Below, one piece after another: positions 8,743 through 35,781 of a stretch of 64,000 nt of DNA (positions are counted from its first letter, which is position 1; each line of letters opens with the position of its first letter). Below the pieces are notes generated by a model. That model had not been told where the DNA came from, did no database searches, and worked only from the letters and a program-made list of their open reading frames with translations. The position numbers and the translations under genes are program-made. The DNA lies in NCBI GenBank assembly GCA_028277795.1, contig JANQFP010000252.1, positions 22,490 through 86,489 of the forward strand, read 5' to 3'. The DNA comes from Rhodospirillales bacterium (GTDB lineage Bacteria; Pseudomonadota; Alphaproteobacteria; Rhodospirillales; JANQFP01).

Positions 8743-8775
8743 CCGCCCGGACGAGGCGACGAGGACACGGGACCG

Positions 8776-9570: not shown

Positions 9571-9575
9571 TACCC

Positions 9576-9636
9576 GCGCGCCTTCGAGCCGACTCGCGAA
9601 GCGCCGTCATCGCACGTCGGAAAGCCCGCGCGGCGG
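9576..9636. repeat. REP-like structured intergenic repeat, copy 1
   Basis: ~60-nt GC-rich element starting a few nt after the motB stop. It recurs at 54518-54578, with ~53/60 identical positions by manual alignment. It contains nested inverted repeats (ccgcgcg/cgcgcgg; cttcgag/ctcgcgaag). Confidence 0.7.
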
Positions 9637-9702
9637 TACAATGCTGAACGTCGAAGCAGGAAATCGTTTTTGGTCAGCCGGTGAACGGCTCGTTCGGCGC
9701 CG

Positions 9703-10581
<879 letters not shown>

Positions 10582-10724
10582 TACTCCCGCTCCGCCGAAA
10601 CGCCGGCGTGACGCATCCTTTCCCGGCCGGACGACACCGCCGTGACGGATGCATCAGCGCAGCTCCCTCTGTGCCCTCAATCGCTTAAGATATGATGAAT
10701 ATGGGTATGGAACTGTGATGAAGG

Positions 10725-15286: not shown

Positions 15287-16303
15287 TCACTCCTTTTCCG
15301 CGGCTGCCGGCCGCCATGAGAACCCGGCACCCATGGCCAGGCCCGACAGGATCCACACCAGCTCGCGGAAACGGCGGACCACGGCCACCGCCACGCCCAG
15401 GGTCGGCGACCCGGTGATGGCGGTGCACACGATCAGGAAGCCCCCTTCCTGGGCGCCCAGGCTGATGGGGATGAAGAAGGTGCCGGCACGCACGAGCTGC
15501 GCCACCGCCTCGATCATCCAGGCCTCGGTGAACGACACCGGATGGCCCAGGAAGGCCATGGCGGCATAGACCTCGAGCACGCCCAGAAACCAGTTGATCA
15601 GGCCCAGGGTCGCCGCCACGGCGAAGCGCCCGCGGCGACGGGTGTAGAACGCCACCAGGCGCTCGTCCACATCGTGGATCAGGTGCAGGACCTCGTCGAG
15701 GCGGCGGGCGATGCGCCAGCGGCTGAGGCGGCTTCCGGTGGCCGAGGAGATCTTGAACCGCTGCACCAGGAAGAACAGCCCGATGCCGACCACCAGGGCC
15801 GTCAGGCCGGCCCCGGCCACCGACTTCAGGGACGCCGGCATGGCCGGCGAGGCGATGAGGAAGGCGAAGCCGCCGCCCAGGAAGACGATGAGAGCCAGCA
15901 GGTTGATGGTCTTGGCGAGGATCAGCGACGCCGTGCCCTCCCGGTAGCCGACGCCGTAATGGCGCTTGAGCAGCACCGCCTTGACCGGCTCGCCGCCCAT
16001 GCCGCCGGCGGGGATGACGGCGTTGAAGGCCTCGCCCACCATGCGCACCTTCCACAGGCGGTACAGCCACCGGCCGTCCACCGGCAGCGAGCCGACGGTC
16101 AGCAGCCACGACAGGGAATCGAACACGAAGGCCAGCAGGTAGAGCCCCAGGACCACCAGGATGCCCCACCCCACCTGGCCGACCCGCGCCGCCACCTGGG
16201 CCAGATCCACGTCGTGCAGGACCAGCGCGAGCAGCCCCAGGCCGAGGAGCAGGTAGAGGCCCTTCAGCCAGCGCACGGCGCGCCGCTTCCGCTCACCGGT
16301 CAC
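15287..16303 (-). CDS. hpnL: HpnL-like integral membrane protein (UPF0104 / lysyl-PG-synthase TM-region family)
   Basis: ~8 TM helices and a flippase-like family pattern. GTG start overlaps the hpnN stop by 11 nt. Confidence 0.7.
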   Translation of the reverse strand: MTGERKRRAVRWLKGLYLLLGLGLLALVLHDVDLAQVAARVGQVGWGILVVLGLYLLAFVFDSLSWLLTVGSLPVDGRWLYRLWKVRMVGEAFNAVIPAGGMGGEPVKAVLLKRHYGVGYREGTASLILAKTINLLALIVFLGGGFAFLIASPAMPASLKSVAGAGLTALVVGIGLFFLVQRFKISSATGSRLSRWRIARRLDEVLHLIHDVDERLVAFYTRRRGRFAVAATLGLINWFLGVLEVYAAMAFLGHPVSFTEAWMIEAVAQLVRAGTFFIPISLGAQEGGFLIVCTAITGSPTLGVAVAVVRRFRELVWILSGLAMGAGFSWRPAAAEKE

Positions 16304-18893
16304 CGGCCGGCACCCGCGGCCACAGCACCATCAACGCCGGCAGCACGGTCAGGGTGCAGGCCAGGGTGAGACCGATGGCCGCTGTCAGCAGCACGCCCAT
16401 GCTCGACGTGCCCGGGTGGCTGGACAGGGCCATGCTGCCGAAGGAGCCGATGGTGGTCAGCGCGCTCAGCACCACGGCCCGCGGCGTGCTGGTCCTCAGC
16501 ACCCGCCCGGTGTCGCCCTCGCCGCGCTCGCGGGCCACCAGGTGGATGCCGCTGGCCACGCCCAGGCCGAACAGCAGGGGCAGGACGATGACGTTGGCGA
16601 AGTTGAACGGCAGGCCCACCAGCACCGAGACGGCCACCGTCAACAGGGCCGCCAGGCCCAAGGGCGCGAACACCAGCAGCACGTCCCGGGGGCGGCGCAT
16701 CAACGCCGCCAGCAGCACCGCGATCAGGGCCAGGGCCAGGGCCGCGGCCTGGACGAACGCCCGCACCACGGCCCGGCCCGCCTCCAGGATGATCACCGGC
16801 GATCCGGTGGCCGCCGGCGCCTGCGTGCGCACCGCCTCGACGAACCGGCGCAGGGCGTCGGGATCGCGCAGGTCGTCGCGGGGAAACACCTGGACGCGGA
16901 CCCGGCCGTCGGTGGCCACGTGCCGCTCGCGCAGGCCCGCCGGCAGGTCATCCACGGTGACCGGCCCGGCCTCCAGGGCCTCCACGAGCGCGTCCAGGCG
17001 CCCCGGCAGGCCCGCCAGCAGCCCCGTCTCCAGGTCCCGCAGCACTTCGTCGGTCGGCGCCGCCGGCAGCGCGTCGGCGAGGCGACGGGCCGCCGCCATG
17101 GCCCCCTGCCCCGCCGCGAGCCGGACGAGCCGGTCGCGGAGGCGGTCAAGGGCGGCCCGGCGCGCCGCCATGTCGGGCGGCTCCTTGGGCGGGGCGGCGA
17201 GGGCCGGCGCCAGGTACAGGGCCATGGTCCCGATGATGTCCAGCTTGCCGTCCTGGTTGGCGGGCACGTAGTCGCCGATGGTGCGCACCCCGTCCACCGG
17301 GCCCAGATCCTCCAGGCGCCGCGCCATGTCCTCGGCCGCGGCCATGTCCCCGGCCAGCACGGTGATGGTGTAGGGACTGGTCTCCGGGTCGGCCATCAGG
17401 TCGAACAGGGTGGAGACCGATTCGGTCTCCGGGTCCTTCAGGTTCAGGGGATCGAAATCGAAGCGCGCCTGCGGCACCGTTACGGCGGCGGCGGCGGCCA
17501 CCGCCAGGGCCCCCCAGGCGATGGGGACGGCCCGCGCCCCGATCACCTGTCGGGCCCCGCGCCAGGCCGGCTCCCGGTGCCGGTGCGCCGACGGCCGCAG
17601 GGGCATCAGGGTGAGCATGGCCGGCAGCACGGTGGTGTTGGTGATCAGGGCGATGACCATGCCGGTGCCGGCGATCAGCCCGAGCTCGGCCAGACCCTTG
17701 TAGTCGGTGGGCAGGAACGCGAAGAAGCCGATGGCCGCGGCCACGGCGCACAGGGTCAGCGCCCCGCCCGAGCCCTTGGCGGCGGCGGCCAGGCCCTTCC
17801 GGTGGTCGGCTCCGCGGTCCACCGCCTCCTTGTAGCGCAGTCCGAAATGGATGCCGAAATCGACGCTGAGGCCGATGAACAGGACGGCGAAGGCGACGGA
17901 GATCAGGTTCAGGCTGTCCAGGGCGGCGACGGCGAACCCCGCCGTCCATACCAGGCCCGCCAACAGGGTCGCCACGATGGCCAGGGCCAGGCGCGGCGAC
18001 CCCAGCCCGAACAGCAGCAGGGTCACGACGACCGTGAGCGACAGGACCGCCGCCAGGCCCAGGCCGTCGCGGACGCTCAGCAGCTCCTCCTCGGCCAGGG
18101 CGGCCGAGCCGGTCAGGCGCACGCGGACGCCGGCGTCCTCGTCGAGACCCAGCTCGGCCACCAGGCCGCGCAGGGCGGCGATGGCTTCGGCCGCAGGCTG
18201 CAGGGAGCCGAAGTCCAGCACCGGCTGGATCAGGATCAGGCGGCGGCCGTCGTCGCCGCCGGTCATCAGTTGGCGCCACGACAGGCGGGCGAACCGGCCG
18301 TCGGCTCGCGCCTCGGCCACCTCGGCCATCGCAGTCAGGACGGGAGCAACATCGATGGGCGGATCCTCATCCGCAACCAGGATCTCGTCGATCGCAAGGG
18401 TCAGCATGTCGGCCAGGCCGCGCAACGTGGGGTCGCGCCGGAGCGCGCCGAGGAACGGTTGGGCCTCGGCCAGGCGGTCGGCCAGCGCCTCCAGGGCGTC
18501 GGTATCCATGTAGAGGAGCCCGTGGCGGCGGAAGAAGGGCTCGCCGGCCGGATCATAGACGTCGCCGAACAGGGCCGGGCGCTCCCTGAGCCGCGCTGCC
18601 AGGAGCCGCGCGGCATCGTCGGCCAGGTCCCCGGTGGCCCCGTCGATGACCACCAGGATGTTGTCCGAGAACTGGGGAAACGCCGCCGACAGGGCGCGGG
18701 AGTTCTGACGGAACGGCAGCTCCGCCGACAACATGTCCTCGGTGTCGGTGTTGATGGTCACGGCGTCGACCACGTAGGCGCCGATGGCGACGGTGGCCGT
18801 TACCGCGGCCAGCACAACAGCGGCGGCGCCACGCCGGACCAGGTCGACCCAGCGGACGACCCAGCGGCGGAACCTGGCGGCGGCTTCGGTCAC
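16293..18893 (-). CDS. hpnN: hopanoid-associated RND/MMPL transporter HpnN
   Basis: 866 aa with duplicated 6-TM plus periplasmic-loop RND architecture. Located in the hpn cluster next to hpnL/hpnM-like genes. Confidence 0.85.
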   Translation of the reverse strand: MTEAAARFRRWVVRWVDLVRRGAAAVVLAAVTATVAIGAYVVDAVTINTDTEDMLSAELPFRQNSRALSAAFPQFSDNILVVIDGATGDLADDAARLLAARLRERPALFGDVYDPAGEPFFRRHGLLYMDTDALEALADRLAEAQPFLGALRRDPTLRGLADMLTLAIDEILVADEDPPIDVAPVLTAMAEVAEARADGRFARLSWRQLMTGGDDGRRLILIQPVLDFGSLQPAAEAIAALRGLVAELGLDEDAGVRVRLTGSAALAEEELLSVRDGLGLAAVLSLTVVVTLLLFGLGSPRLALAIVATLLAGLVWTAGFAVAALDSLNLISVAFAVLFIGLSVDFGIHFGLRYKEAVDRGADHRKGLAAAAKGSGGALTLCAVAAAIGFFAFLPTDYKGLAELGLIAGTGMVIALITNTTVLPAMLTLMPLRPSAHRHREPAWRGARQVIGARAVPIAWGALAVAAAAAVTVPQARFDFDPLNLKDPETESVSTLFDLMADPETSPYTITVLAGDMAAAEDMARRLEDLGPVDGVRTIGDYVPANQDGKLDIIGTMALYLAPALAAPPKEPPDMAARRAALDRLRDRLVRLAAGQGAMAAARRLADALPAAPTDEVLRDLETGLLAGLPGRLDALVEALEAGPVTVDDLPAGLRERHVATDGRVRVQVFPRDDLRDPDALRRFVEAVRTQAPAATGSPVIILEAGRAVVRAFVQAAALALALIAVLLAALMRRPRDVLLVFAPLGLAALLTVAVSVLVGLPFNFANVIVLPLLFGLGVASGIHLVARERGEGDTGRVLRTSTPRAVVLSALTTIGSFGSMALSSHPGTSSMGVLLTAAIGLTLACTLTVLPALMVLWPRVPAGDR

Positions 18894-19111: not shown

Positions 19112-19816
19112 ATGGAATTTAGCGTCACCAGGCTGGATATAGTTTTCGAAACTGTATTCATTAGGCCGGCTTTCTCCGTCGCACAAAAAACGACAAAAGT
19201 ACTGGAATCTATTTATGACGCATTGAGCCCGAGATTTTCCGTTCAACTCTCTGACCTGCAGGTCCAACCTGGTTTATCCTTTGCTGACGTCTTCGTTCGT
19301 GTCAATATTTTTGGAGGCAACGGGCAGTTGGAACTCAGAGTTGATAAGTTCACTGGTCGATTCCAAAACCTAAAAACGAGCGACGACGTCAAATCAGTAA
19401 AAGAAAGCCTGGACTTGAGCGAAAAGGCCATCGCCGAAGTTATTCCAGACATGCGGGAGAAAACCACGGCTATTCGCACAGCTTCCTGGTTGAACTGTGG
19501 ATTGGATGGCGCCGCGGCGGCGAATTTACGAGAGAAATGGGTCGACGCGTCTGCCAACGTCCCCTACCGCCAATTGGGGGCCGCGAGCTTGAATTGCCCG
19601 ATTGAGGCCAGTTTCGACAACGAAGAAGAACGATGGGCGGTATCTTTCCGTATTGAGCCTTCGGCTTCGAACTCGGCCGACCTATATTTCGCATGCAATG
19701 GCTTGTACGCGCCGGGTGGCAAGTTTAGCAACCTTGATGAGAGGGCCGAACACATGGAAATCCAGTATCTAGGACTGCTGAGACACTTCGGGTTCGAGCC
19801 ACCGGAAACGCGATAG
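19112..19816 (+). CDS. hypothetical protein (no recognisable domain), first gene of a low-G+C islet
   Basis: 234-aa ORF with an AT-richer composition than the flanks. It ends 22 nt upstream of the Xre-like antitoxin gene. Confidence 0.6.
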   Translation: MEFSVTRLDIVFETVFIRPAFSVAQKTTKVLESIYDALSPRFSVQLSDLQVQPGLSFADVFVRVNIFGGNGQLELRVDKFTGRFQNLKTSDDVKSVKESLDLSEKAIAEVIPDMREKTTAIRTASWLNCGLDGAAAANLREKWVDASANVPYRQLGAASLNCPIEASFDNEEERWAVSFRIEPSASNSADLYFACNGLYAPGGKFSNLDERAEHMEIQYLGLLRHFGFEPPETR

Positions 19817-19838
19817 CCTGACAACCGAGAAATCAGCT

Positions 19839-20462
19839 ATGCCCACAAATGGACAGGTCCAGCGGGAAGAGGAGTGGCTTGCGGCCAGCACGCACTTCGT
19901 TCCCTTTGAGCAGAGTAGTAGCGCCGTGGAAGGGTCTCCGGCACGCAGCTCAAAGGGTCTACAGCTCGGAATCGGCCCCGATTGGGCAAGGGGTCCGGGA
20001 AATGTAGATCGAGCCACCACAGCGGTTCGTGACTCCTTAAGGGAGACCGAGAGAAGCGAAGCTCGAAATCGATTTGTCGCGTTACCTTTGCCAGAGGAGG
20101 GAAGTTTTTCGGGCCGAGTGACGGCCCCCGTCCGGTTCTTCGCTAGAGTTCTAGAAGTTTGGGGACTGGATCGCAGCGCCGCGGCAAAGCTGCTCGGGTA
20201 CGAAGATGATCGTCTGGCACATGAACTCTTGTCCGGCGCCGCAAGCCTGCGAACCCGGGACGCCAAAGACAGGATACGCCACGTTTTCGTAATTAGGGAG
20301 GCCCTGCACCAGTTGTTCCGGGACGAACGTGTTGAAAGGGAGTGGCTTCGGGAACCGCGCCCCGAACTGAACAACAACACTCCCATCCAGCTCCTTCTGG
20401 AAGGATCGATGGAAAACATGTTGCTTGTTCGGCAACTCGTGGAGTGGATGGTGGGCCGGTAA
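19839..20462 (+). CDS. Xre/MbcA/ParS-family antitoxin (DUF2384 toxin-binding domain)
   Basis: C-terminal WLREPRPELNNNTPIQLLLEGSMENMLLVRQLVEWMVGR fits the DUF2384 pattern. Immediately precedes a RES-domain gene. Confidence 0.75.
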   Translation: MPTNGQVQREEEWLAASTHFVPFEQSSSAVEGSPARSSKGLQLGIGPDWARGPGNVDRATTAVRDSLRETERSEARNRFVALPLPEEGSFSGRVTAPVRFFARVLEVWGLDRSAAAKLLGYEDDRLAHELLSGAASLRTRDAKDRIRHVFVIREALHQLFRDERVEREWLREPRPELNNNTPIQLLLEGSMENMLLVRQLVEWMVGR

Positions 20463-20466
20463 CATC

Positions 20467-21111
20467 GTGCTTGAGCAAGTCGTCCCGCTGGAAGTGTCTG
20501 AAACTGTTTTCAGGTTTGCGAACCGACCTAAGCACGCCAAGTTTCTCGAAGACATGGACTTCGATCCCGATGACCAGGAGGAAATCCTCTCCTTCGTCGA
20601 GTCGATCCACGCCAAGTCCGACCTCCAAGACCTCTTGGACGGCCCGTTCGCGCGCAAGCCCGTGCTGGAGACAGCCCGAGCCCGCCAATCCCGCTTCTCG
20701 GATGGTCGTCTCCGTATCTTCTATAGCTCGCTTGAGCTCGAGACCGCGAAGGCGGAGACGTTCCACTGGTACGCAAAAGCGGCGCTCGCAAGTGGATCAG
20801 CGGCAAGGACCGTCTATTATGAAAGGTTCCATTGCCGATTTCAGGGAACAGCATGGGACCTGCGCCTGCAGGCCTCCGAATGGTCCTTTCTCGCCGATCC
20901 CGACGAGAGTGCCTATCCGCACTGTCAGCACGTCGCTGCGGAGGCCGTCGCCGCCGAACTGGACGGCTTGCTGACACCATCGGCGCGAAATACGAACGGA
21001 ACCAATGCACCGGTTTTCAGCCGGACGGCGCTCTCGGAACCGCAAGTCCTCGGTTACACGGCCTTCTCATCGGACCCCGACAGCGGGCGGATAAGGGCGG
21101 TGGACAGGTGA
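20467..21111 (+). CDS. RES-domain toxin (NAD+-targeting MbcT/ParT-like family)
   Basis: R...Y/E...S pattern (SRFSDGRLRIFYSSLELETAKAE ... LTPSARNTNGTNAPVFS). GTG start 4 nt after the antitoxin stop (the track ORF starts at TTG 20425). Confidence 0.75.
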   Translation: MLEQVVPLEVSETVFRFANRPKHAKFLEDMDFDPDDQEEILSFVESIHAKSDLQDLLDGPFARKPVLETARARQSRFSDGRLRIFYSSLELETAKAETFHWYAKAALASGSAARTVYYERFHCRFQGTAWDLRLQASEWSFLADPDESAYPHCQHVAAEAVAAELDGLLTPSARNTNGTNAPVFSRTALSEPQVLGYTAFSSDPDSGRIRAVDR

Positions 21112-21169
21112 CGCCAGAGTCCACTTCACCTCAACAGTGACGCTCACCGTCGAGAGTAGGCTTCGGACC

Positions 21170-21784
21170 ATGAAGGCGCCGCCCTGGGATCAACGCATCG
21201 CCCGGACCCTGGTTCGGCCCCTCGCCGGCACGCCGGTGACGCCCAACCATGTCACCGTGCTCACCATCGTCCTGGCCCTGACCGGCGCCGGATTGCTGGC
21301 GGTCGGCGATCCCGTTCTCGCCAACTGGGGCGCCGGCCTGTTCGTGCTCGCCCGCTTCATGGACCACCTGGACGGCGAGCTGGCCCGGCAGACCGGACGC
21401 ACCTCGCGGGTCGGCTACTACCTGGATTACGGGGCCGGAGGACTGAGCTACGCCGCCCTGTTCCTCTGCATCGGCATCGGCTTCCGCGACGGCGCGCTGG
21501 GCCCGTGGGCCATCGCCCTGGGGGTGGCCGGCGCCGCCTCCGCCGTCGTCTCGCTGTTCCTGAATCTCGGCATCGACCGAGCCCAGAAGCGGAGGCAGGG
21601 CACCGAAGGCGACGCCGTCGGCTACCCCGGGTTCGCCGGCTTCGAGCTGGAGGACGGGATCTATCTGCTGGCGCCGGTGACCTGGCTCGGCTGGCTGGAG
21701 CCCTTCTTCGTCGCCGCCGCCATCGGGGCCGTGGTCTACACCTTGTGGAGCGTGGGGCGTCTGGCCCTGGTGCGCCGCCGGTAG
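21170..21784 (+). CDS. CDP-alcohol phosphatidyltransferase-family membrane protein (motif variant lacking the last Asp)
   Basis: DHLDGELARQTGRTSRVGYYLDYGAG matches DGxxAR-x8-G-x3-D, but the final conserved D is G. Multi-TM. Paralogue of the convergent gene. Start could be GTG 21137. Confidence 0.75.
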   Translation: MKAPPWDQRIARTLVRPLAGTPVTPNHVTVLTIVLALTGAGLLAVGDPVLANWGAGLFVLARFMDHLDGELARQTGRTSRVGYYLDYGAGGLSYAALFLCIGIGFRDGALGPWAIALGVAGAASAVVSLFLNLGIDRAQKRRQGTEGDAVGYPGFAGFELEDGIYLLAPVTWLGWLEPFFVAAAIGAVVYTLWSVGRLALVRRR

Positions 21785-22362
21785 AGGATCGCCGCGAACA
21801 GCAGCGCGAAGGCCGGCGCGCCGATGGTCGCCGCCCACAGGAGCGGCAGGGACCAGCCCAGCCACACCGCCACCGGCACCGCCAGCACGGCGTCGTCCGG
21901 GTCGAATCCGGCGAAGCTGCCCAGCTCGGCGGCCCGCTCGCCGCCCAGGGCCTCCATGCGGACCGTCATCCACAGCACCGCGGCAATGGCGCCGCCGGCC
22001 AGGACGCCCATGGGGATGGCCCACATCCCCAGTTCGCTGCTTCCGAGGCCGATCCCGAGGCCGACGAAGGCCAAGGCGTTGGACAACGCGTCGGCCCACA
22101 GGTCGTAGACGTGGCCCCGGGCCGACGTGCGGCCGGTGGCGCGGGCCAGTTCGCCGTCCGCCCGGTCGAGCACCATCGACACCACGAACACGGCGCCGCC
22201 CACGTGGATCCACGGGGCCGCGCCGGTGGCCAGAAAGGCCGCCGCCGCCAGCCCGCCGGCCAGCCGCAGGGTGGTGAGCTGGTTGGGGGTCACCGGCGTC
22301 GCCGCCAGGGGGCGGACGATGGCGACGCGGGCCAAGCGGTGAATCCAGGTGTTGTGGCTCAC
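21736..22362 (-). CDS. CDP-alcohol phosphatidyltransferase-family membrane protein (complete motif)
   Basis: DRADGELARATGRTSARGHVYDLWAD gives the full DGxxAR-x8-G-x3-D-x3-D motif. GTG start at 22362 overlaps the ppd stop (GTGA). Only the C-terminal part of track ORF 21736-22854 is considered coding. Confidence 0.8.
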   Translation of the reverse strand: MSHNTWIHRLARVAIVRPLAATPVTPNQLTTLRLAGGLAAAAFLATGAAPWIHVGGAVFVVSMVLDRADGELARATGRTSARGHVYDLWADALSNALAFVGLGIGLGSSELGMWAIPMGVLAGGAIAAVLWMTVRMEALGGERAAELGSFAGFDPDDAVLAVPVAVWLGWSLPLLWAATIGAPAFALLFAAILYRRRTRARRPTLHKV

Positions 22363-23507
22363 GGCGCCGCCCCGTCGGCGAGGAAGGCCCGGAAGCGCCG
22401 CGCCACCTCGGACGGATGCACCGTCGGCCGGCCGAGCCCGGACATGGAGCCGGGCGCGATGCGCATGTGCACCAGGGCCGGCCCGGCGGCGCCGAGGGCG
22501 TCGGACACGGCCGACGAGAAGCCGTCCGCGGAATCGCAGACCGCCGCCCGGGAGTATCCGCAGGCGAGCGCGGCGCCGGCGAAGTCCACCGCCGCCGACA
22601 CGGTCGGCTGACCGCCGGTCGAATCGTAGGTGCCGTTGTCGAGCACCACGTGGAGGAGGTTCTTTGGCGCATAGGCGCCGATGGTGGCCAGGGTCCCCAT
22701 TTTCATCAGTGCCGCCCCGTCGCCGTCGACCACCACCACCGGGCGGTCCACCCCCAGCGCCACGCCCAGCCCCATGCCCGCCGCACAGCCCATGGAGCCC
22801 ACCTGATAGAGATGCTGCGGGCGGTCGGCAAGGGTGAACAGCTCGCGGCCGCATTTGCCGGTGGTGGCGATCACCGCCGCCGCCTCGGGCAGAGCCTCCA
22901 GCAGGCGCTCCAGCACCGCCATGCGGGCCGGCGGGGCCCCACCCTCCTCCAGGTCCCGGCGAACCCCGGTCGGCCGCGGCCCGGGCGCCAGGGCGTCCAG
23001 CGCGGTCTCGGCCACGTCGCCCTTCTCCATGATGAAGGCGAAGGGCAGGCCGGTGTCCTGCATGCGTTCCGTGGCCTCGGACAGGGCACCGGCCACGTCT
23101 TCGGCGGCCTTGGGGAACGGCCGGTGGGGAACCCGGATGGTGTCCAGCAGGGCCGGGGTGATCTGCCCCATGAGCTCGTGCTGGGGCTCGTCCTCGAGGC
23201 CGGGGCCGCCCCGCCAGGTGACCACCAACAGCGTCGGGATTCGGAACGGAAAATTTAAAGAAGTTAGTGGGTTAACGGCGTTTCCTAAACCGGAATTCTG
23301 ACACATGACGACGCTGTCGCGGCCCGTCAGCCAAGCGCCGGCGGCGATGGCCACCGCCTCGCCCTCGCTGGCCGCGGCCACGTAGGTCAGGGACCGGTCG
23401 CCGAGGGTGCCGTTGATGATGGGGGTAAGGAACGAGCACGGCACGCCGGTGAAGAACTGCAGGCCGGCGGCGCGCGCCGGCCCCAGAAAGGCGTCGGCGT
23501 CGATCAC
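22359..23507 (-). CDS. aepY: phosphonopyruvate decarboxylase
   Basis: ThDP enzyme: N-terminal [11 protein letters not shown] ... [13 protein letters not shown] and ThDP motif [34 protein letters not shown] 23507 overlaps the upstream stop (GTGA). It is the C-terminal 382 aa of track ORF 22359-24950. Confidence 0.85.
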
Positions 23508-25225
23508 AGGAACTGGCCCGCGTGCACCAGGTCGGCGGCGTCGTCCACGTCCAGCCACTGGCCGGCCACATACAGCACCCGCACCGTCGTCTCGCCGCCC
23601 GCGGCCAGACGGCTGAACAGGTCGAGCAGGCTGGCCTTGGGCAGGGTCCCGTCGGCGGCCATGGCCTCGATGACGCCGCGCACGGCCGCGCAGCCGCGGT
23701 CGCTGAGGCGGGCCAGGCCCACCCATTCGCCGTGGGCGCGGTCCGGGGGCACGTCGTTGCCCATGCGCACCAGGGTGACCGGGTCGTCGTCCAAATAGCT
23801 GCCGGAGAAGGGCCGCGAGCACACCGCCAGGTCGCGCACCGGGTCGGATCCGCTGACCGCGCGTTGGCGCCACAACGCATCCACGGCCACCACGACGTCG
23901 CCGTCGGCCGCCATCAGCTGGTCCAGGTAGTGGTGGCGGAACAGGATGTCGCCGTAGGCGATGACGCAATCGCCCTGCAGGTGGTCGGCGGCACAGGCCA
24001 GGCTCGCCGCCTCGCCGGTGACCGCGTAGAGGTCGTTGTCCACGGTGCGGATGGACGGCAGGTTGATCATCTCCTTGCGGTAGCCGCGGACGACGGTGAC
24101 CTCGCCCACGCCCCCCTCGCGCAGGGTGGCGATGAGGCGGCGCAGCAGCGGCTCGCCGCGCACGTCGATCATGCACTTGGGGCGGTCGGCGGTAAGCGGC
24201 CCCAGGGCGGCGCCGCGGGACGCCGCCAGCAGCACGGCGCGCCGCTCCGGCGGCCCCGAGGACGGCAGGTAGCGGCGCTCGGCCTCGGCCAGCTCGTCGT
24301 TGCCGGCCAGCTCGAAGACCTCGCCGACGCTGGCCACCTGGCCCTCCACGCCGACCAGGCTCTCCTCGCGCTGGATGCGGCGCGACACCTCGCGCATGGC
24401 AGTGATGGCGGCGCGCAGGTTGTGATTGGCCCAGATGGCCACCGAGAACCCGGCCTGGCGGAACACCGAGGTGGGCGTCGTGTGGTACTTGGTGGGCACG
24501 ATGACCACCGGCGCCCGGTCCCCCCACGCACCCTTGAAGGCCAGCACCTCGTCGGCGGTGGGCATCTTGGAGTGGATCAGCAGGGCGTCGGCGCCGGCGG
24601 CGTGGTAGGCCTCGGCCCGGCGCAGGGCCTCGTCCAGCCCCCAGCCCGAGATCAGCGCCTCGATGCGGGCCACAAGGCAGAAGTCGGGGTCCGTCTGGCT
24701 GTCCTTGCCGGCCTTGATCTTGCCGCAGAACTCGTCGATGTCGGCCAGGGGCTGGCCCTCGCCGATGAACGAGTTGGTCTTGGGGAACAGCTTGTCCTCG
24801 ATGCAGATGCCGCCGATGCCCCGCTGGCACAGTTTGGCCACGGCCCGGCGCACGTTGTTGAAGTTGCCCCAGCCGGTGTCCCCGTCCACCAGGATGGGGA
24901 TGGAGGTGGCGTCGGCCATGAACTCCAGGACCTCCAGCACCTGGGTCCACGACGCCTCGTTGTTGTCGCGCACCCCCAGGGCGGTGGCGATGGACAGCCC
25001 CGATGCCCAGATGCCCTTGAACCCCGCCTCCTCGACGATCTTGGCCGACATGCCGTCGTGGGCCTCCATCAGGAACTCGAGGCGCGGAGACCGCAACAGG
25101 GCGGCGAGGCGGGCGGCCTTGGTGATTTCGGCGGGCTCGGCGGCGCCGAGGGGACGGAGGGGTGTGGTCATGGCGGTGCGGGCAGGACGGGGTTGAACGC
25201 GGACCGGCAGGTCGTTTAGTTTCAC
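23504..25225 (-). CDS. aepX: phosphoenolpyruvate phosphomutase fused to a C-terminal nucleotidyltransferase (cytidylyltransferase-like) domain
   Basis: Ppm-diagnostic EDKxxxxxNS motif ([10 protein letters not shown]) within an isocitrate-lyase/PEP-mutase fold. C-terminal ~270 aa has an NTP-transferase pattern ([25 protein letters not shown]). The start may instead be ATG 25171. Confidence 0.85.
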
Positions 25226-25305
25226 GCGGCTGTCATTATATCAACACGAAAGTGCAACAAAAGCGTCGCCGTGCCGGCGGCCGAACAAGGGTTTTCAGTT
25301 CCGCC

Positions 25306-26064
25306 ATGCTCCGCACTCCCGTGCTCACCGAGCCGCAGATCGAGGCCTTCCGCGACACCGGCTATCTGGTCGTGCGCGGCGCCTTCGACGCCGCCGAAAT
25401 GACCCGAGTCGACGCCTGGGCCCGAGAGATCGCCGCCTGGCCCGAGGTCTCGGGCCGCCACTGGGTGTTCCACGAGAAAAGCCGCAAGGGCGACGACGCC
25501 GACCTCATCTGCCGCATCGAGAAGCTGTCGCCGTTCCACGACGGCTTTGCCGAGCTGAGCCGGGTGCTGGAGGGCCCCGTGGGCCAGCTCATGGGCGAGC
25601 CGGCGGTGCTGTTCAAGGAGAAGATCAACTTCAAGATGCCGGGCGGCGACGGCTTCAAGCCCCACCAGGATTCCCAGGCCGGCTGGGACGCCTACGCCGA
25701 GTTCTTCGTCAGCGCCCTGGTGTGCATCGACGAGGCGACGCCGGAGAACGGCTGCCTGCAGATGGTGTCGGGCCACCACCGGCGCGGGCTGTTCCGCTCA
25801 TGGGAGCCGCTGACCGACGAGGACATGGCGGGCATGGACTTCGTCGACTGCCCGACCAGGCCCGGCGACATCGTGTTCTTCGACTGCTACGCGCCCCACG
25901 GCTCCCAGCCCAACATGAGCGACCAGACCCGGCGCATCTACTTCGCCACCTACAACAAGGCCTCCGAGGGCGACCACATGGCCCGGTACTACGCCGACAA
26001 GCACAAGACCTATCCCCCCGACATCGACCGCGAGCCGGACAAGGAGTACGTGTTCCGGGTGTAG
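25306..26064 (+). CDS. PhyH-family Fe(II)/2-oxoglutarate dioxygenase
   Basis: HxD facial-triad motif (KPHQDS), distal His (APHGSQPN) and Arg (RRIY). Divergent from the ppm operon. Confidence 0.8.
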   Translation: MLRTPVLTEPQIEAFRDTGYLVVRGAFDAAEMTRVDAWAREIAAWPEVSGRHWVFHEKSRKGDDADLICRIEKLSPFHDGFAELSRVLEGPVGQLMGEPAVLFKEKINFKMPGGDGFKPHQDSQAGWDAYAEFFVSALVCIDEATPENGCLQMVSGHHRRGLFRSWEPLTDEDMAGMDFVDCPTRPGDIVFFDCYAPHGSQPNMSDQTRRIYFATYNKASEGDHMARYYADKHKTYPPDIDREPDKEYVFRV

Positions 26065-26089: not shown

Positions 26090-26479
26090 TTAGAGGGCCG
26101 CCGGGAGATCGGTGGCGGAGAAGTCCGTCCCTTTGAACAGCAGCGGCGCGCCGGTGGCCTTGGCCAGCGCGTAGGCGAAGCAGTTACCGAAGTTCAGGGC
26201 GGCTCGGTGGCGGCCTTTGCCGTAATCGAGATAGGCTTGGCGCGCGATTCGCACGTGCTCCGGGGACACCGGCACCACCGTCAAGCGCGCCCGATCGACG
26301 AACGCGTCGAGCTGGCGTCCGGCGGCGGCACCGAGCTGGCTGTCGATGACGATGGCCGTTTCGAGAAGGTTCGCCGCCGAGATGACCGGACGCTCGGCCG
26401 CCGCGATGGCCGCCGCATAGGCCGGCCCGTCGGGCTCGGCGAACAGGATCGCCAACAGGGCGGAGGTGTCGATCACCAT
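26090..26479 (-). CDS. vapC: type II toxin VapC (PIN-domain ribonuclease)
   Basis: MVIDTSALLAIL ... start typical of PIN toxins, with conserved acidic residues. 129 aa, directly downstream of the antitoxin. Confidence 0.85.
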   Translation of the reverse strand: MVIDTSALLAILFAEPDGPAYAAAIAAAERPVISAANLLETAIVIDSQLGAAAGRQLDAFVDRARLTVVPVSPEHVRIARQAYLDYGKGRHRAALNFGNCFAYALAKATGAPLLFKGTDFSATDLPAAL

Positions 26480-26490
26480 CGATGCCCCCG

Positions 26491-26742
26491 TCAGCGCGGC
26501 AGGCCGCGGTCGTCGTACAGAAGCTCGTCGTGGCTCCGCGTGTCGGCGCGGCCGTGGGCGGCGCAGCGCCGTCCGATCTCCATCAGGTCGCGGGCCAAGG
26601 CGTCGCGCTCGCGGTGCCGGCGCTCCCGTTGCAGCCGCTCGCGGATGGCCTCGGTCACGCACTTGGTAATGCTTTCGCCGGTCAGCCGCGCGAGTTCCAC
26701 GGCCAGGGCATGGGCCTCCGGGGCTTTGATATTCAGGCTCAT
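26491..26742 (-). CDS. vapB: type II antitoxin VapB-family
   Basis: 83-aa ORF MSLNIKAPEAHALAVELARLTGESITKCVTEAIRERL, typical of VapB/FitA-like antitoxins. 11 nt upstream of vapC. Confidence 0.8.
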   Translation of the reverse strand: MSLNIKAPEAHALAVELARLTGESITKCVTEAIRERLQRERRHRERDALARDLMEIGRRCAAHGRADTRSHDELLYDDRGLPR

Positions 26743-26928
26743 GGTAGAAAAGCACCGTGTTTGTCTAGCCTTCTATAAACCTACGGCCGAATGGCGGTCG
26801 TTTCAAGGTCCCCACAGGGCCCGAAAGGCTACGATCGGAGTCCCCCGAGGCACGGCCGAATTGATCTTGCACGGCGCGCCAAAGGTCGGCCAGCATGGGT
26901 CCGCCAACCGCCGGAGACGGAGACCAAG

Positions 26929-27231
26929 ATGGAGAACCTGGACGGCACTCAACCGCCAAAGGAGTTTGGCCCCCAGGCATCCCTGCTGAAGCGGTGGGTC
27001 CTGGGCGGCATCTGCATCGTGCTGGTTCTCGCGTTCCTGTGGTTCGTGGCCACTCAGCTCGGCGACGGCCAAGGCTGCGAGGGTTGCATGTCCTTCCGCG
27101 GCGGCGAGTCCGACGGGCCACCCATCTGGATGTTCGCCCTCGGCACCCTCCTTGTCGTCGCCGTTGCCTTGGCGGCGCCGGTCCTCGCAAGACTGGGCAT
27201 GAAGTCTGGCGCCGAGTCCGACGACACCTGA
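26929..27231 (+). CDS. hypothetical small membrane protein (weak call)
   Basis: ~100 aa with two hydrophobic helices. Internal ATG of track ORF 26791-27231. No family recognised. Confidence 0.3.
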   Translation: MENLDGTQPPKEFGPQASLLKRWVLGGICIVLVLAFLWFVATQLGDGQGCEGCMSFRGGESDGPPIWMFALGTLLVVAVALAAPVLARLGMKSGAESDDT

Positions 27232-27308
27232 GCCGGCGTCTGGACGGCAGCCGAGGCCGTGGTCGAAGCCTCGCGAAGTTCGGATGCCAACGTTGACGGA
27301 TTGACAGA

Positions 27309-27893
27309 ATGAGTCCGCGACCAATCGTATCGTTGATTTGGCAAGGCCCTATCGGTGTCGGCAATCTTCCTGGGCTGGAGGGCCAGAAGGATTTGGTCGG
27401 ACCGCATATCTACGTCATATGCCAACATTACGCGAATCACACGACCGTCTATGTGGGCCAATCCAAGACTTTCTTGAATAGGCTTTGGCAGCATTATCTA
27501 AATTTCTTGGGGCTTCATTATCTTATTCGGGACGAAGACGGCGAACATGTCTATGATCCACGTAATGACGACATGTTTGAAAAGCTCAATAATCTGAAAG
27601 AGTTTTTCAGTTTTATTGTCAATGACGTGAGCAGGACGAGGATATTTTACGCAAAGTGTGCGCCAAAGGCCTTGGATCCAGTTGAAAGTACATTGATTGA
27701 CCACGCCTTTACAAATTTTCCGTACGAATCAAACGACAAGAAATATCGGTGTGACAATACTCGTCGTCAAAACTATGGAGACGATGACACACCAATAACC
27801 ATTGATATGAAATACGAGAGATTGGAGGATAATGGTAAAGTCGTGCTCAAAGAAATATTCGGCGAGCAAGTAAAGTGCAAATTTGACGCTTAG
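27309..27893 (+). CDS. GIY-YIG nuclease-domain protein (orphan)
   Basis: HIYVICQHYANHTTVYVGQSKTFLNRLWQH fits GIY-x10-YxG ... R ... H, and the downstream VESTLID supplies the conserved Glu. Lies in a visibly AT-rich ~650-bp islet. Confidence 0.6.
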   Translation: MSPRPIVSLIWQGPIGVGNLPGLEGQKDLVGPHIYVICQHYANHTTVYVGQSKTFLNRLWQHYLNFLGLHYLIRDEDGEHVYDPRNDDMFEKLNNLKEFFSFIVNDVSRTRIFYAKCAPKALDPVESTLIDHAFTNFPYESNDKKYRCDNTRRQNYGDDDTPITIDMKYERLEDNGKVVLKEIFGEQVKCKFDA

Positions 27894-27953: not shown

Positions 27954-28769
27954 TCAGCCGTGGCCGACCCGGCCGGTGCCGCGCATCGGGGCTGGGTGAG
28001 CCGCCGCGTCGTGGGTGTCGTGCGCCGGACCGACGATGCGCGGGAGAATCTTCTTCTCGGCGCGCAGCAGGTCGGCCGGGAAATCGATCTCGATCCACGG
28101 GATGCCGGTGATGTCCTCGACGCCGAAGGTGCCCGGCGGCTCGCTGACCAGCACGTCGCGCATGGCCACCTCGTAGGTCACGCCCATCCGCGCCTCGTCC
28201 ACCAGGGCCTGGGCGGCATCGGCCATGCGGGCCGCGATCTCCGGGGTCATGGTGAGGAAGCCGGGCCACTCCCCGATCATGTCGAAGGTCCCCTCCACCT
28301 TCTTGCCGAAGTCCACCGGCAGACCGTCGCGCAGGCACAGCTTGACCGGCTCGTCACCCGGCTCGATGGCTTGGTCGAGCAGGAAGCAGTTGCCATGGGT
28401 CGACGTCACCAGCCGCTCGATGAGCCGCGGGTCGTAGAGCACGTCGGCGTCCATGAACAGCACCGGCGCCCCCTCCCGCAGCACCTCGCGGGCGGTCCAG
28501 AACGACAGGATTGGACCGCCGCGGAAACGCGGATTGTAGAGGCTGCGCACGTAGTCACGGGCGCCGATGGCGCGGACCTCGGCCAGGATCTCGTCGTGGC
28601 GGTAGCCGAGCACCATCACCAGCTCGTCCACCCCCACCGACTGCAGCACCCGGATGTGGCGCTCCAGCAGGGTGGCGCCGGCGAAGCGCAGCAACGACTT
28701 GGGCGGCTGCCGGTAGTCGTCGCCGTACAGGCGCGACCCCACGCCCGCCGCCAGCATCAACGCTTTCAT
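27954..28769 (-). CDS. nucleotidyltransferase (LicC / sugar- or phospho-alcohol cytidylyltransferase-like)
   Basis: N-terminal MKALMLAAGVGSRL nucleotide-binding motif (LAAGxGsR) and NTP_transferase fold pattern. Confidence 0.75.
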   Translation of the reverse strand: MKALMLAAGVGSRLYGDDYRQPPKSLLRFAGATLLERHIRVLQSVGVDELVMVLGYRHDEILAEVRAIGARDYVRSLYNPRFRGGPILSFWTAREVLREGAPVLFMDADVLYDPRLIERLVTSTHGNCFLLDQAIEPGDEPVKLCLRDGLPVDFGKKVEGTFDMIGEWPGFLTMTPEIAARMADAAQALVDEARMGVTYEVAMRDVLVSEPPGTFGVEDITGIPWIEIDFPADLLRAEKKILPRIVGPAHDTHDAAAHPAPMRGTGRVGHG

Positions 28770-28846
28770 GGTGCTGTGTGCTCCGCTTCCCGGGTCGCCG
28801 CGCCGTTCGCGGCCGGAGCCCAGGAATAGGCGGTTTCACGAAAGAT

Positions 28847-29173
28847 TCAAGGCTGATTCAAGGGTCCGTCGTGAAATCGTTGCGGTACTTCGTCACTGGA
28901 CATGCTGACGAAGGCGGCGGCCACGATGAGGACCAGGGCCCAGGTCACGGCGCCGGCCGGGGCGGCGGCGGCGAGCACCGCCACGCCAAGTACCGTGAAC
29001 GCCACCTGCACCATCAGGCCGACGGTGAAGTCGCCGACGACCGAGGCTGCCGCCACGGCCCGGCCCACCGCGGCCACGTCGACGGACGCGAACATGGCGA
29101 CGGCCACGGCCATTCCGATGAAGGCCAGGATTGTCGCCCTCAACCACGATCGGTTCCCGGTAGCCTCACTCAC
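28847..29173 (-). CDS. hypothetical small membrane protein translationally coupled to hpnA
   Basis: GTG at 29173 overlaps the hpnA stop (GTGA). ~108 aa with three very hydrophobic Ala/Val-rich helices. Confidence 0.4.
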   Translation of the reverse strand: MSEATGNRSWLRATILAFIGMAVAVAMFASVDVAAVGRAVAAASVVGDFTVGLMVQVAFTVLGVAVLAAAAPAGAVTWALVLIVAAAFVSMSSDEVPQRFHDGPLNQP

Positions 29174-30162
29174 GAAAGGAACCCGTTGTCGCGGAACCAG
29201 GCGACGGCATCGACCAGTGCCTGGCGGGCCGGGCGCCAGCGGTAACCCAGGGCGCGCGCGGCCTTGGCGCTGGAGAAGAACATCTTCTTCTTGGCCATGC
29301 GCACCCCGTCGGCGGTGGCGAAGGGCTCGTCGCCGCCGCTCAGGCGGGTCCACGCCTCCGCCACGTAGGCGATGGGCATGACCAACCCGTGGGGCAGGCG
29401 CACCCGCGGCGGCGGCCGCCCCACGATGGCCGCGATTTCGGCCAGGATATCGCCCAGGGTCATGTTCTCGCCCCCGAGGACGTAGCGCTCGCCGATGGTG
29501 CCCTTGTCGAAGGCCAGCAGGTGGCCCTCGGCCACGTCGTCCACGTGGACGATGTTGAGGCCGGTGTCCACGTAGGCCGGCATGCGGCCGGCCGCGGCCT
29601 CGACGATCATGCGCCCGGTGGGGGTCGGCTTGACGTCGCGCGGGCCCACCGGGGTGGACGGGTTGACGATGACCACCGGCGCCCCCTCCTCGGCCACCAG
29701 CCGCATCACCGCCTCCTCGGCCCGGAACTTGGACTGCTTGTAGGGGCCGATCATGTCGGCGAAGGCGACCGGGGTGTCCTCGTCGCCGGAGCCGCCGCCC
29801 GCCGGCACGCCCAGGGTGGCGACGCTGCTGGTGTAGACGACGCGCCGTGCCCCCGCCTCGGCGGCGGCCCGCACCACATCAAGCGAGCCGTCCACGTTGG
29901 CGCGGAACATGGCGTCCGGATCGCGGGTCCACAGGCGATAGTCGGCAGCCACATGGAACACGCCGTCGCAGTCGCCGCAGGCGCGCCGCAGCGACGCCGG
30001 GTCGGTGAGGTCGCCCTCGGCCGTCTCCACCACCAACCCATCGAGGTTGCGGCGGTCGCCCGTTGGCCGCACCAGCACCCGCACCACGTGCCCCGCGGCA
30101 AGCAGCCTCCGGGCCACCGCCGAGCCGACGAACCCGGTGGCCCCGGTCACCAACATCCTCAC
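29170..30162 (-). CDS. hpnA: hopanoid-associated NAD-dependent sugar epimerase/dehydratase HpnA
   Basis: Rossmann motif [10 protein letters not shown] and the SDR-extended pattern (YxxxK: YKQSK). hpn cluster context. Confidence 0.8.
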
Positions 30163-31292: not shown

Positions 31293-31310
31293 CGAGCGCG
31301 GAGACGGCCG

Positions 31311-32444
31311 GTGAGCGTTCCCTTAATCCAGCAGGTGCGGGTCGGCGCCTACATCCTCGGCAAGCGGTTGCGCGGCGTGGAGCGCTATCCCCTCGTGCTG
31401 ATGCTGGAGCCCTTGTTCCGCTGCAACCTGGCCTGCGCCGGTTGCGGCAAGATCGACTACCCGGACGCCATCCTCGACCGCCGCCTCAGCGTGCAGGAGT
31501 GCCTGGACGCGGTGGACGAGTGCGGAGCCCCGGTGGTCTCCATCCCCGGCGGCGAGCCCCTGCTGCACAAGGAGATCGACCAGATCGTTGACGGCATCGT
31601 TGCGCGGCGCAGGTTCGTCTACCTGTGCACCAACGGCCTGCTCCTGGAGCGGAAGCTGGACCTGTTCCGGCCCAGCCCCTACCTCACCTTCTCCGTCCAC
31701 CTGGACGGCCTGGAAGCGGAGCATGACGAAGCGGTGTGCCAGGAAGGCGTTTTCCTCCGTGCCGTCGCGGCCATCCGCGCCGCCCGCGCCCGCGGCTTCC
31801 GGGTCAACGTCAACTGCACCCTGTTCGACGGCATGGCGCCCGACCGGGTGGCAGCCTTCTTCGATTTCTGCACCACCGAGCTGGACGTGGAAGGAATCAC
31901 GGTCTCCCCCGGCTACGCCTACGAACGCGCCCCCGACCAGGAGCACTTCCTCAACCGCCGCCGCACCAAGGAGTTGTTCCGCGACGTCTTCCGGCGCGGC
32001 GCGGAGAGGTGGACCTTCAACCAGTCGCCCCTGTTCATGGACTTCCTGGCCGGCAACCAGAGCTACCCTTGCACGCCGTGGGGCAACCCGACGCGCAACG
32101 TGTTCGGCTGGCAGCGGCCGTGCTACCTGCTCAACGAGGGCTATGCCGCATCGTTCCGCGAGCTCATGGAGGACACAGACTGGGACGCCTACGGCACCGG
32201 CAACTACGAGAAGTGCGCCGACTGCATGGTCCACTGCGGCTACGAGGCGACGGCGGTCAACGACACCATCTCGCACCCCTTGAAGGCCCTAAAGGTGGCG
32301 CTCAGCGGCTTCGACACCGAGAAGCCCATGGCCCCGGAGATCCCGCTTGACGGCCAGCGCCCGGCCGAGTTCGTCTTCGAGCACTTGGTCGAGACCCTGA
32401 ACCGGCCCGACCCAGGCCCCGGCGAGCGCAGCGACGCAGCCTAA
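31311..32444 (+). CDS. hpnH: adenosylhopane synthase, hopanoid radical-SAM protein HpnH
   Basis: Radical SAM motif CNLACAGC. ~377 aa with a C-terminal Cys-rich region (CADCMVHCG). hpn context. Confidence 0.85.
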   Translation: MSVPLIQQVRVGAYILGKRLRGVERYPLVLMLEPLFRCNLACAGCGKIDYPDAILDRRLSVQECLDAVDECGAPVVSIPGGEPLLHKEIDQIVDGIVARRRFVYLCTNGLLLERKLDLFRPSPYLTFSVHLDGLEAEHDEAVCQEGVFLRAVAAIRAARARGFRVNVNCTLFDGMAPDRVAAFFDFCTTELDVEGITVSPGYAYERAPDQEHFLNRRRTKELFRDVFRRGAERWTFNQSPLFMDFLAGNQSYPCTPWGNPTRNVFGWQRPCYLLNEGYAASFRELMEDTDWDAYGTGNYEKCADCMVHCGYEATAVNDTISHPLKALKVALSGFDTEKPMAPEIPLDGQRPAEFVFEHLVETLNRPDPGPGERSDAA

Positions 32445-35736: not shown

Positions 35737-35781
35737 ATGTCATGGAAGTTCCGGGGCTTGTTGCCCCAATCCGCCAGAATG

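Follow-up and report, generated by a model that had tools for sequence, protein, structure and literature searches.

A Group 1-type phosphonolipid locus without a neighbouring transaminase, embedded in an alphaproteobacterial hopanoid cluster

How might a phosphonate gene cluster that encodes no enzyme to aminate phosphonoacetaldehyde (PnAA) nevertheless complete its pathway? The question is raised by a 64 kb stretch (hereafter the window) of the 89-kb contig JANQFP010000252.1, from a Rhodospirillales bacterium (assembly GCA_028277795.1), in which genes for a phosphoenolpyruvate (PEP) mutase fused to a cytidylyltransferase domain (Ppm-NT), a phosphonopyruvate decarboxylase (Ppd) and two CDP-alcohol phosphatidyltransferases (CDP-OH transferases) lie beside a divergently transcribed Fe(II)/2-oxoglutarate (2OG) dioxygenase of the PhyH family (hereafter PhyH). 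An initial annotation of this sequence held that the operon pairs with PhyH instead of with a 2-aminoethylphosphonate (AEP) transaminase (AEPT), and left two alternatives, namely that a transaminase is supplied in trans and PhyH makes a hydroxylated head group, or that the pathway ends in a different phosphonate. Our comparison with related clusters identifies the locus as a variant of the core of the 'Burkholderiales_CDP-OH' group (Li & Horsman 2022), which corresponds to the Group 1 phosphonolipids of Yu et al. 2013 (PMC8942020); the variant is AEPT-less, carries a PhyH-type oxygenase and is embedded in a hopanoid cluster.

Because the window has a high guanine-plus-cytosine (GC) content (~68%), reading frames were picked via third-position GC, and Pfam scans covered every coding-frame-filtered open reading frame (ORF) of at least 300 aa in the 64 kb, together with most of the smaller ORFs near the locus. 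A Ppm-NT profile was run against species-representative genomes, giving a genome sample of 80 loci, and a PhyH profile was run against metagenome contigs, giving a metagenome sample of 80 further loci. Both sets were annotated by tblastn, with genes of the window and reference genes as probes, and individual loci are cited below by number (L001 and so on). The closest relatives of the window belong to uncultured Rhodospirillales and Hyphomicrobiales.

A missing transaminase and a constant dioxygenase

The genes listed by the initial annotation (ppm-NT, ppd, the transferases and the divergent PhyH) are real and lie where it placed them, as judged by Pfam and NCBIfam scores (Table 1), and we agree with its statement that the operon contains neither an aminotransferase nor an alcohol dehydrogenase. 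Neither the operon nor the Pfam-scanned ORFs of the 64 kb yielded an aminotransferase, an Fe-ADH or an aldehyde dehydrogenase, and tblastn searches of the window with six AEPT probes from related clusters returned a best E of 0.046. The contrast is clearest with a set of sister clusters from uncultured Alphaproteobacteria (L023, L029, L130, L134, L143, L144), whose proteins are 55-67% identical to those of the window and whose gene order is the same (hpnL-hpnN-CDPOH2-CDPOH1-...-Ppd-Ppm / PhyH-PntC-hpnA-hpnH-shc). In these clusters AEPT is located between Ppd and CDP-OH transferase 1, whereas in the clade of the window Ppd abuts the transferase. Moreover, the window has neither room for AEPT at this slot nor a remnant of it, because Ppd, whose own start overlaps ppm, runs with its stop codon into the beginning of the transferase (22359/22365).

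The absence of AEPT is not a one-off, and is common to a whole clade of related loci. In a neighbour-joining (NJ) tree of Ppm, the window groups with L008, L012, L013, L018, L025, L035 and L045, in none of which AEPT was seen (L012, L025 and L035 being truncated contigs), and at least four separate groups, including that of the window, are without AEPT near Ppm-Ppd. Among fully flanked Ppm-Ppd loci, AEPT is not within the flanks in 15 of 26. Protein divergence across the AEPT-less clade is about 25-30%. Within AEPT-less groups, the ratio of nonsynonymous to synonymous substitution rates (dN/dS) comes to 0.15-0.16 in Ppm, 0.09-0.18 in Ppd and 0.12 in PhyH; these low values are the mark of purifying selection, and imply that the genes have stayed functional without a neighbouring AEPT. 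No replacement enzyme was apparent beside Ppm-Ppd in AEPT-less loci, where Pfam annotation of 20 neighbouring ORFs revealed unrelated housekeeping genes (EF-G, MetRS, FolD and others), and AEPT-less clusters have gained no gene relative to their AEPT-containing sisters. A few sporadic candidates turned up, but were discarded for want of conservation between loci. L013 has a class I/II aminotransferase, ~1.8 kb downstream of Ppd and on the other strand, L043 has an aldo-keto reductase, and L047 a beta-eliminating lyase.

PhyH does not fill this vacancy. Both PhyH and AEPT lie beside Ppm-Ppd in 12 loci of the genome sample (L023, L029, L032, L037, L040-42, L049, L050, L060, L061 and L072), and the same is true of L130, L134, L143 and L144 in the metagenome sample, while the catalytic and other conserved motifs of PhyH are identical in clusters with and without AEPT. 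Since the two genes coexist in sister clusters, with the same PhyH motifs, PhyH is no substitute for AEPT, and the earlier idea of a dioxygenase employed instead of a transaminase must be given up. Rather, the dioxygenase is a standing member of the pathway, and a regular partner of AEPT.

A transaminase might instead be drawn from elsewhere in the genome. Orthologs of AEPT are found in other assemblies within LysR-PhnW-HAD(PhnX-like) operons, where they are 61-65% identical to cluster-encoded AEPTs, and so as close to these as cluster-encoded AEPTs are among themselves. Such operons look like AEP catabolic loci. The reaction catalysed by PhnW is reversible, and these operons are therefore a plausible source of AEPT in trans.

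The other supply genes are similarly mobile with respect to their neighbours. Among 19 PhyH-centred metagenome loci with a hopanoid (hpn) context, Ppm, Ppd and AEPT are all present in 4, Ppm and Ppd without AEPT in 2, Ppd alone in 3, Ppd and AEPT without Ppm in 1, and none of the three in 9. Ppd is full length in loci that have it without Ppm, which implies that a Ppm encoded elsewhere is needed to provide its substrate. In the metagenome-assembled genome (MAG) JACKKN01, PhyH, PntC and three CDP-OH transferases are found in a hopanoid cluster on contig 12 (L004), and Ppm-NT and Ppd form an isolated pair beside EF-G on contig 11 (L013). Positioned between the transferase and PhyH, Ppm-NT, Ppd and AEPT thus behave as a mosaic, movable supply cassette. 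Any of its parts may sit away from the core, and the constant core consists of PhyH, PntC, the CDP-OH transferases and HpnL. A different cluster type was encountered in L021 and L027 (7393-12588), where a Ppm-NT fusion occurs without Ppd and has a DegT/DnrJ-type aminotransferase, an MFS transporter and a further protein of the PhyH family on its flanks; this type may represent a route in which amination takes place at the level of phosphonopyruvate.

Group 1-type architecture with AEPT has already been catalogued, as a seven-gene core comprising a Ppm-PntC fusion, Ppd, AEPT, an alpha-ketoglutarate oxygenase, a second PntC and two phospholipid genes, for which the predicted product is a 1-hydroxy-AEP lipid (PMC8942020). 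The window contains the Ppm-PntC fusion, Ppd, an Fe(II)/2OG oxygenase, a standalone PntC and two phospholipid genes, and is without an Aminotran_5 AEPT in the cluster. Its PntC, CDP-OH transferases and HpnL-like protein are 28-47% identical to annotated counterparts in Roseomonas marmotae and Mycetohabitans. On plasmid pBRH01 of Mycetohabitans rhizoxinica (L011), as in the window, a Ppm-PntC fusion, Ppd, a second PntC, a CDP-OH transferase, an LPG-synthase-domain protein and an Fe/2OG oxygenase occur together and are linked to hopanoid/isoprenoid genes (dxs, MMPL, ispH). Plasmid p1318-3 of R. marmotae (L010) likewise resembles the window, in that genes for Ppm-NT, Ppd, PntC, a CDP-OH transferase and an HpnL-like protein are interspersed among ispH-hpnH-hpnG-shc-hpnEDC and hpnN; however, AEPT is present and PhyH absent in R. 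marmotae, and the reverse is true of the window. Compared with the Burkholderiales_CDP-OH group, the window lacks AEPT, has two CDP-OH transferase paralogs, one of which has a degenerate motif, and has its genes spread between hpnN and hpnA rather than gathered in a single operon. The Burkholderiales oxygenase was considered as an ortholog of PhyH and ruled out, as the two have no BLAST similarity. The Mycetohabitans oxygenase (L011, 7319-8026) and a verrucomicrobial protein 45% identical to it (L054, 9162-9848) belong to a different 2OG-Fe(II) family from that of PhyH, and consequently two Fe/2OG families appear to fill the same slot.

Genes of the phosphonate module

Three overlapping genes run along the minus strand from 25171 to 21736, encoding Ppm-NT, Ppd and CDP-OH transferase paralog 1 (Table 1). 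Ppm-NT scores 380 bits against TIGR02320, above the cutoff of 319.55, contains EDKxxxxxNS, the diagnostic motif of PEP mutases, and is 53-55% identical to the fusions of Burkholderia and Mycetohabitans. Its start codon is fixed by a 100% identical protein of 555 aa (P0121), and the top PDB match of its fused NT domain is LicC (1JYK, E 1e-11). Paralog 1 retains the full D(x)2DG(x)2AR(x)8G(x)3D(x)3D motif and shares 42-47% identity with the transferases encoded in the phosphonolipid clusters of R. marmotae and Mycetohabitans; it is the probable CMP-(hydroxy)AEP:lipid phosphonotransferase. The signature of the convergent paralog 2 reads DHLDGELARQTGRTSRVGYYLDYGAG, the last Asp being replaced by Gly, and the same D-to-G change is seen in every paralog 2 ortholog examined (L001, L004, L005, L008, L023, L029, L099 and others). 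This Asp is kept in paralog 1, and also in a third, hpnN-adjacent CDP-OH transferase copy that is absent from the window. Judging from its residues, paralog 2 may act as a partner subunit that is altered or has no catalytic activity. A low-GC insertion (19112-21111) between hpnN and the transferases contains an orphan ORF (19112-19816) and an Xre/MbcA-type antitoxin and RES-domain toxin pair (19839-20462, 20425-21111).

The initial annotation named PhyH as the only additional enzyme, and in doing so missed a standalone cytidylyltransferase, an HpnL-like protein and the enclosing hopanoid cluster. The standalone PntC is 44-45% identical to genes annotated as 'phosphocholine cytidylyltransferase family' in the R. 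marmotae and Mycetohabitans clusters, and its top PDB match, which covers the full NT domain, is 6PD1, from the NT(PntC)/AEPT fusion of Treponema denticola. PntC directly adjoins PhyH in L008, and lies within about 1-2.5 kb of it in L001, L004 and L005. In the window the two are parted by an insertion spanning 26090-27893, which encodes, on the minus strand, a VapC toxin with a PIN domain (26090-26476), and which also contains an orphan ORF of low GC content (27309-27893). The HpnL-like protein is 28-31% identical to LPG-synthase-domain genes found inside the ppm operons of R. marmotae and Mycetohabitans. In the Group 1 core, one of the two 'phospholipid genes' corresponds to it; in the window the HpnL-like gene sits ~5 kb away, next to hpnN.

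Table 1 Features of the phosphonate module and of the enclosing hopanoid cluster (coordinates refer to the window)
Feature	Position	Strand	Support or remark
HpnL-like LPG_synthase_TM (flippase-like) membrane protein	15287-16303	-	PF03706 E 4e-28; TIGR03476 156 bits, below cutoff
HpnN-type MMPL/RND hopanoid transporter	16293-18893	-	PF03176 E 2e-29; syntenic in hpn-embedded loci; one module border
CDP-alcohol phosphatidyltransferase paralog 2	21167-21784	+	PF01066 E 2e-10; convergent with paralog 1
CDP-alcohol phosphatidyltransferase paralog 1	21736-22365	-	PF01066 E 5e-13
Phosphonopyruvate decarboxylase Ppd, 382 aa	22359-23507	-	TIGR03297 421 bits, cutoff 312.5; TPP_enzyme_N and TPP_enzyme_C
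PEP mutase with C-terminal LicC/PntC-like cytidylyltransferase domain (Ppm-NT), 555 aa	23504-25171	-	PF13714 E 5e-60; PF12804 (NTP_transf_3) E 4e-13
Divergent spacer between ppm-NT and PhyH, 131 bp	25172-25302	.	Presumed shared promoter region
PhnY*-like Fe(II)/2OG dioxygenase, PhyH family, 253 aa	25303-26064	+	PF05721 E 5.6e-32, model positions 1-212 of 213
Standalone PntC-like cytidylyltransferase	27954-28772	-	PF12804 E 4e-15
HpnA, hopanoid-associated short-chain dehydrogenase/reductase (SDR) 'sugar epimerase'	29170-30162	-	TIGR03466 499 bits, above cutoff; other module border
Radical SAM and DUF3463 (hpnH)	31293-32444		Pfam
SQHop_cyclase (shc)	33772-35739		Pfam
Amino_oxidase	within ORF 37311-38774		Pfam

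The HxD...H triad noted earlier in PhyH was borne out, in that the iron triad (H121-x-D123...H199), as well as the 2OG-binding R210, is invariant in an alignment of 14 homologous sequences. The designation of the enzyme as PhnY-type stands at the level of the subfamily but not at that of the protein. Among NCBIfam models, NF052437 (methylphosphonate hydroxylase PhnY*) matches it best, with an E of 4e-50, whereas the ectoine hydroxylase model reaches 1e-9, yet the score of 171 bits falls below the equivalog cutoff of 500, and on these profile scores the window dioxygenase is consequently a member of a related subfamily of PhnY*, not the same protein. A PDB search returned no PhnY* or FzmG structure, the top match being leucine hydroxylase (E 1.6e-10). 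Database matches to the dioxygenase exceed 2000, and among the 120 matches listed identity is 68-76%, some of these being named 2-AEP dioxygenase by JGI. A PhyH homolog 35% identical to it (E 5e-42) is encoded on a Rhodococcus plasmid, and the gene directly after it specifies an HD protein similar to the PhnZ and TmpB oxygenases of known structure (E ~1e-27); this PhyH-HD pair is a catabolic PhnY*/PhnZ pair, and its PhyH shares motifs such as LFKEKINFKxPGGxGFxxHQD with the window dioxygenase. PhnY* (for example GmPhnY*) and PhnZ act in the oxidative catabolism of AEP and methylphosphonate, as reportedly described by McSorley in 2012. The dioxygenase of the window is homologous to PhnY*, but its context is biosynthetic, and a PhnZ probe detected no PhnZ-type HD oxygenase in the window, where its best E was 0.054, nor in any of the 80 loci centred on PhyH, so that the pairing is seen only for the Rhodococcus homolog. 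By analogy, PhyH is a putative C1 hydroxylase of the AEP head group.

The divergent pairing of ppm and PhyH across a spacer recurs in L008, L012, L023, L025, L029, L035 and other loci. An alignment of seven spacers revealed no conserved sequence motif, and a consensus scan found no consensus sigma-70 promoter in the spacer of the window. Association with phosphonate genes is moreover not confined to hopanoid clusters. In the Chromatiales loci L060 and L072, PhyH-Ppm-Ppd-AEPT-PntC lie on one strand without hopanoid genes, and plasmid pC5.7d of Rhizobium rhizogenes (L092, 5148-7409) carries a PntC-PhyH-LicD operon whose PhyH is 43% identical to that of the window. These three operons tie PhyH to the phosphonate pathway independently of hopanoid genes, and the last of them suggests an additional role for the same hydroxylase in phosphonate tailoring directed at glycans. 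A second PhyH-family dioxygenase is encoded in a lower-GC stretch of the window (52979-53941, plus strand), with 24% identity over 111 aa to the ppm-adjacent one.

A possible route and its competitors

The reading that we favour, though with no better than even confidence, is a Group 1/CDP-OH lipid head-group pathway with a trans-encoded transaminase and a hydroxylated AEP head group. Of the two alternatives originally offered, it is thus the one with the transaminase in trans that fits the data better, and a different phosphonate that fits them less well. In such a pathway Ppm would convert PEP to phosphonopyruvate, which Ppd would decarboxylate to PnAA, and an AEPT/PhnW-type class V aminotransferase encoded elsewhere would then produce AEP. 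The PhnY*-like dioxygenase, by analogy with PhnY*, would hydroxylate AEP at C1, whether as free AEP, as CMP-AEP or as the lipid-bound head group. The phosphonate would be activated with CMP by the Ppm-fused PntC, the standalone PntC or both, and one or both CDP-OH transferases would move it to a membrane lipid alcohol, with the HpnL-like protein possibly serving as a flippase.

Several observations weigh against this pathway. No transaminase was found for this genome in the 64 kb of an 89-kb contig that were read, and AEPT homologs were not matched to AEPT-less contigs when the best 120 of at least 8000 AEPT-profile matches were compared. No product has ever been isolated from the Group 1 cluster family, and FzmG, a homolog of PhnY*, is reported to oxidise PnAA itself to phosphonoacetate (PMC8942020). 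Additionally, orthologs of PhyH with 63-76% identity persist without Ppm, Ppd or AEPT within 10 kb, and a phosphonate substrate for PhyH is for this reason no more than probable. In L116, L119, L123 (about 8570-10760) and L121, orthologs with 63-67% identity immediately follow hemN, with genes for Crp/FNR, DsbD_2, hemerythrin or a P-type ATPase close by and no phosphonate or hopanoid gene within 10 kb; L116, L119 and L123 are low-GC marine contigs (~40%), and L121 has a GC content of ~65%. Finally, L104 contains a scar of a ppm-NT deletion (5086-5346), in which residues 17-65 are joined to 510-555, beside an intact Ppd, indicating that the mutase was lost by internal deletion in this lineage and that the cassette decays in some lineages.

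Other explanations can be put forward. AEP could be bypassed altogether, with the dioxygenase consuming PnAA in the manner of FzmG to give phosphonoacetate, possibly then hydroxylated, or with a non-dedicated reductase giving 2-hydroxyethylphosphonate (HEP), so that the head group would be a non-amino one. Besides the precedent of FzmG, the persistence under purifying selection of a whole clade without a transaminase in cis is consistent with such a bypass, as is the existence of cytidylyltransferases for HEP (Fom1) and phosphonoformate (PhpF) (PMC6697681), although according to the same paper characterised PntCs favour AEP over phosphocholine. Possible reductases are also at hand, given that HpnA, an SDR, is encoded ~3 kb from the dioxygenase and that the aldo-keto reductase of the AEPT-less L043 lies a few kb downstream; HpnA, however, is general to hopanoid clusters and is present in hpn-context loci without Ppm or Ppd. 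The same PhyH orthogroup, with the same motifs, adjoins AEPT in many clusters, and the AEPT-less clusters have acquired no compensating gene. A bypass is consequently the less parsimonious solution, and we consider it rather improbable. Less probable again is a role for the dioxygenase as a hydroxylase of hopanoids or other membrane lipids, or in some other O2-dependent process, as a mere neighbour of phosphonate genes within the hpn cluster. PhyH does keep its position in the hpn cluster in the 9 of 19 hpn-context loci without Ppm, Ppd or AEPT nearby, and the orthologs beside hemN, Crp/FNR and P-type ATPase genes would also accord with a role of this kind. Yet its sequence is closest to phosphonate alpha-hydroxylases, as attested by the match to NF052437 and by the PhnZ-paired homolog, it adjoins Ppm and/or PntC outside hopanoid contexts in the Chromatiales and on the Rhizobium plasmid, and at least one locus without ppm (L004) derives from a MAG in which ppm is found on another contig. 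Furthermore, in Burkholderiales and Verrucomicrobia the slot is taken by a 2OG oxygenase of unrelated sequence, a sign that the pathway requires such an enzyme.

It is also conceivable that the AEPT-less operon is a decaying remnant, in which Ppm and Ppd, following the loss of AEPT, make a dead-end aldehyde or are silent and headed for deletion. The related loci form a series consistent with progressive loss, from those with all of Ppm, Ppd and AEPT, through those with Ppm and Ppd or with Ppd alone, to those with none, to which the scar in L104 and the toxin-antitoxin and restriction-modification genes inserted throughout the cluster of the window may be added. However, all ORFs are intact, including their catalytic motifs, the overlap between Ppd and the CDP-OH transferase resembles translational coupling, and the purifying selection on Ppm and Ppd in AEPT-less pairs, in a clade as divergent as this one, is difficult to reconcile with decay, which we regard as very unlikely.

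Hopanoid context and implications

The phosphonate module sits between hpnN and hpnA, within a hopanoid cluster that extends over 12782-41462 and includes MlaA, two hpnM genes, hpnL, hpnN, hpnA, ispH, hpnH, hpnG, shc, hpnE, hpnD/C-like SQS genes and a GT2 gene. Beyond hpnA are ispH (LytB), hpnH, hpnG and shc. There are two SQS_PSY genes, and the two HpnM copies score above their TIGRFAM cutoffs, the HpnL-like protein falling below. The genes whose joint occurrence defines a hopanoid cluster, namely shc, hpnH, hpnC/D/E, hpnA, hpnN, hpnM and hpnL, are thus found together here. A lower-GC segment between shc and hpnE (35782-37250) holds an inserted BglII-like restriction endonuclease and MT-A70 methyltransferase.

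Interleaving of hopanoid and phosphonate genes recurs in many alphaproteobacterial loci, and it is found with different gene orders in Roseomonas marmotae and in Mycetohabitans (Burkholderiales). Weaker linkage is seen in one gammaproteobacterial locus (L088), with HpnN-, HpnA- and HpnL-like matches, and in the Verrucomicrobia (L053, L054, L062), with HpnA-like (~40% identity) and HpnL-like matches alone. Terpene genes have previously been noted beside ppm in Acetobacteraceae, where a 'terpene-phosphonate' was suggested (PMC8776678). Two recent hopanoid studies give the function of HpnL and HpnA as unknown, and contain no mention of phosphonates, CDP-alcohol transferases or cytidylyltransferases. 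Since the linkage survives the shuffling of gene order, the phosphonate module might be a functional part of the hopanoid system, either through attachment of (hydroxy)AEP to a hopanoid polyol (e.g. bacteriohopanetetrol), or through a phosphonolipid that is co-exported or assembled with hopanoids by HpnN/HpnM/MlaA; we put this forward as a speculative proposal, and one more likely wrong than right by a wide measure.

Phosphonolipid clusters of Group 1 type are among the commonest bacterial phosphonate gene clusters, yet they have no isolated product to their name, and the present comparison narrows the experimental tests that could be applied to them. Whole clades do without a transaminase in cis even as Ppm and Ppd remain under selection, and a constant core can be told apart from a movable supply cassette. 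For genome mining, classification by neighbourhood would file AEPT-less loci as candidates for a 'novel phosphonate', when the head group made is most likely of the AEP type. The interleaving with hopanoid genes connects the phosphonate and hopanoid fields, and the proposed functional coupling, if true, would provide a first function for HpnL, and perhaps for HpnA, and reveal a new class of lipids, the phosphonylated hopanoids.

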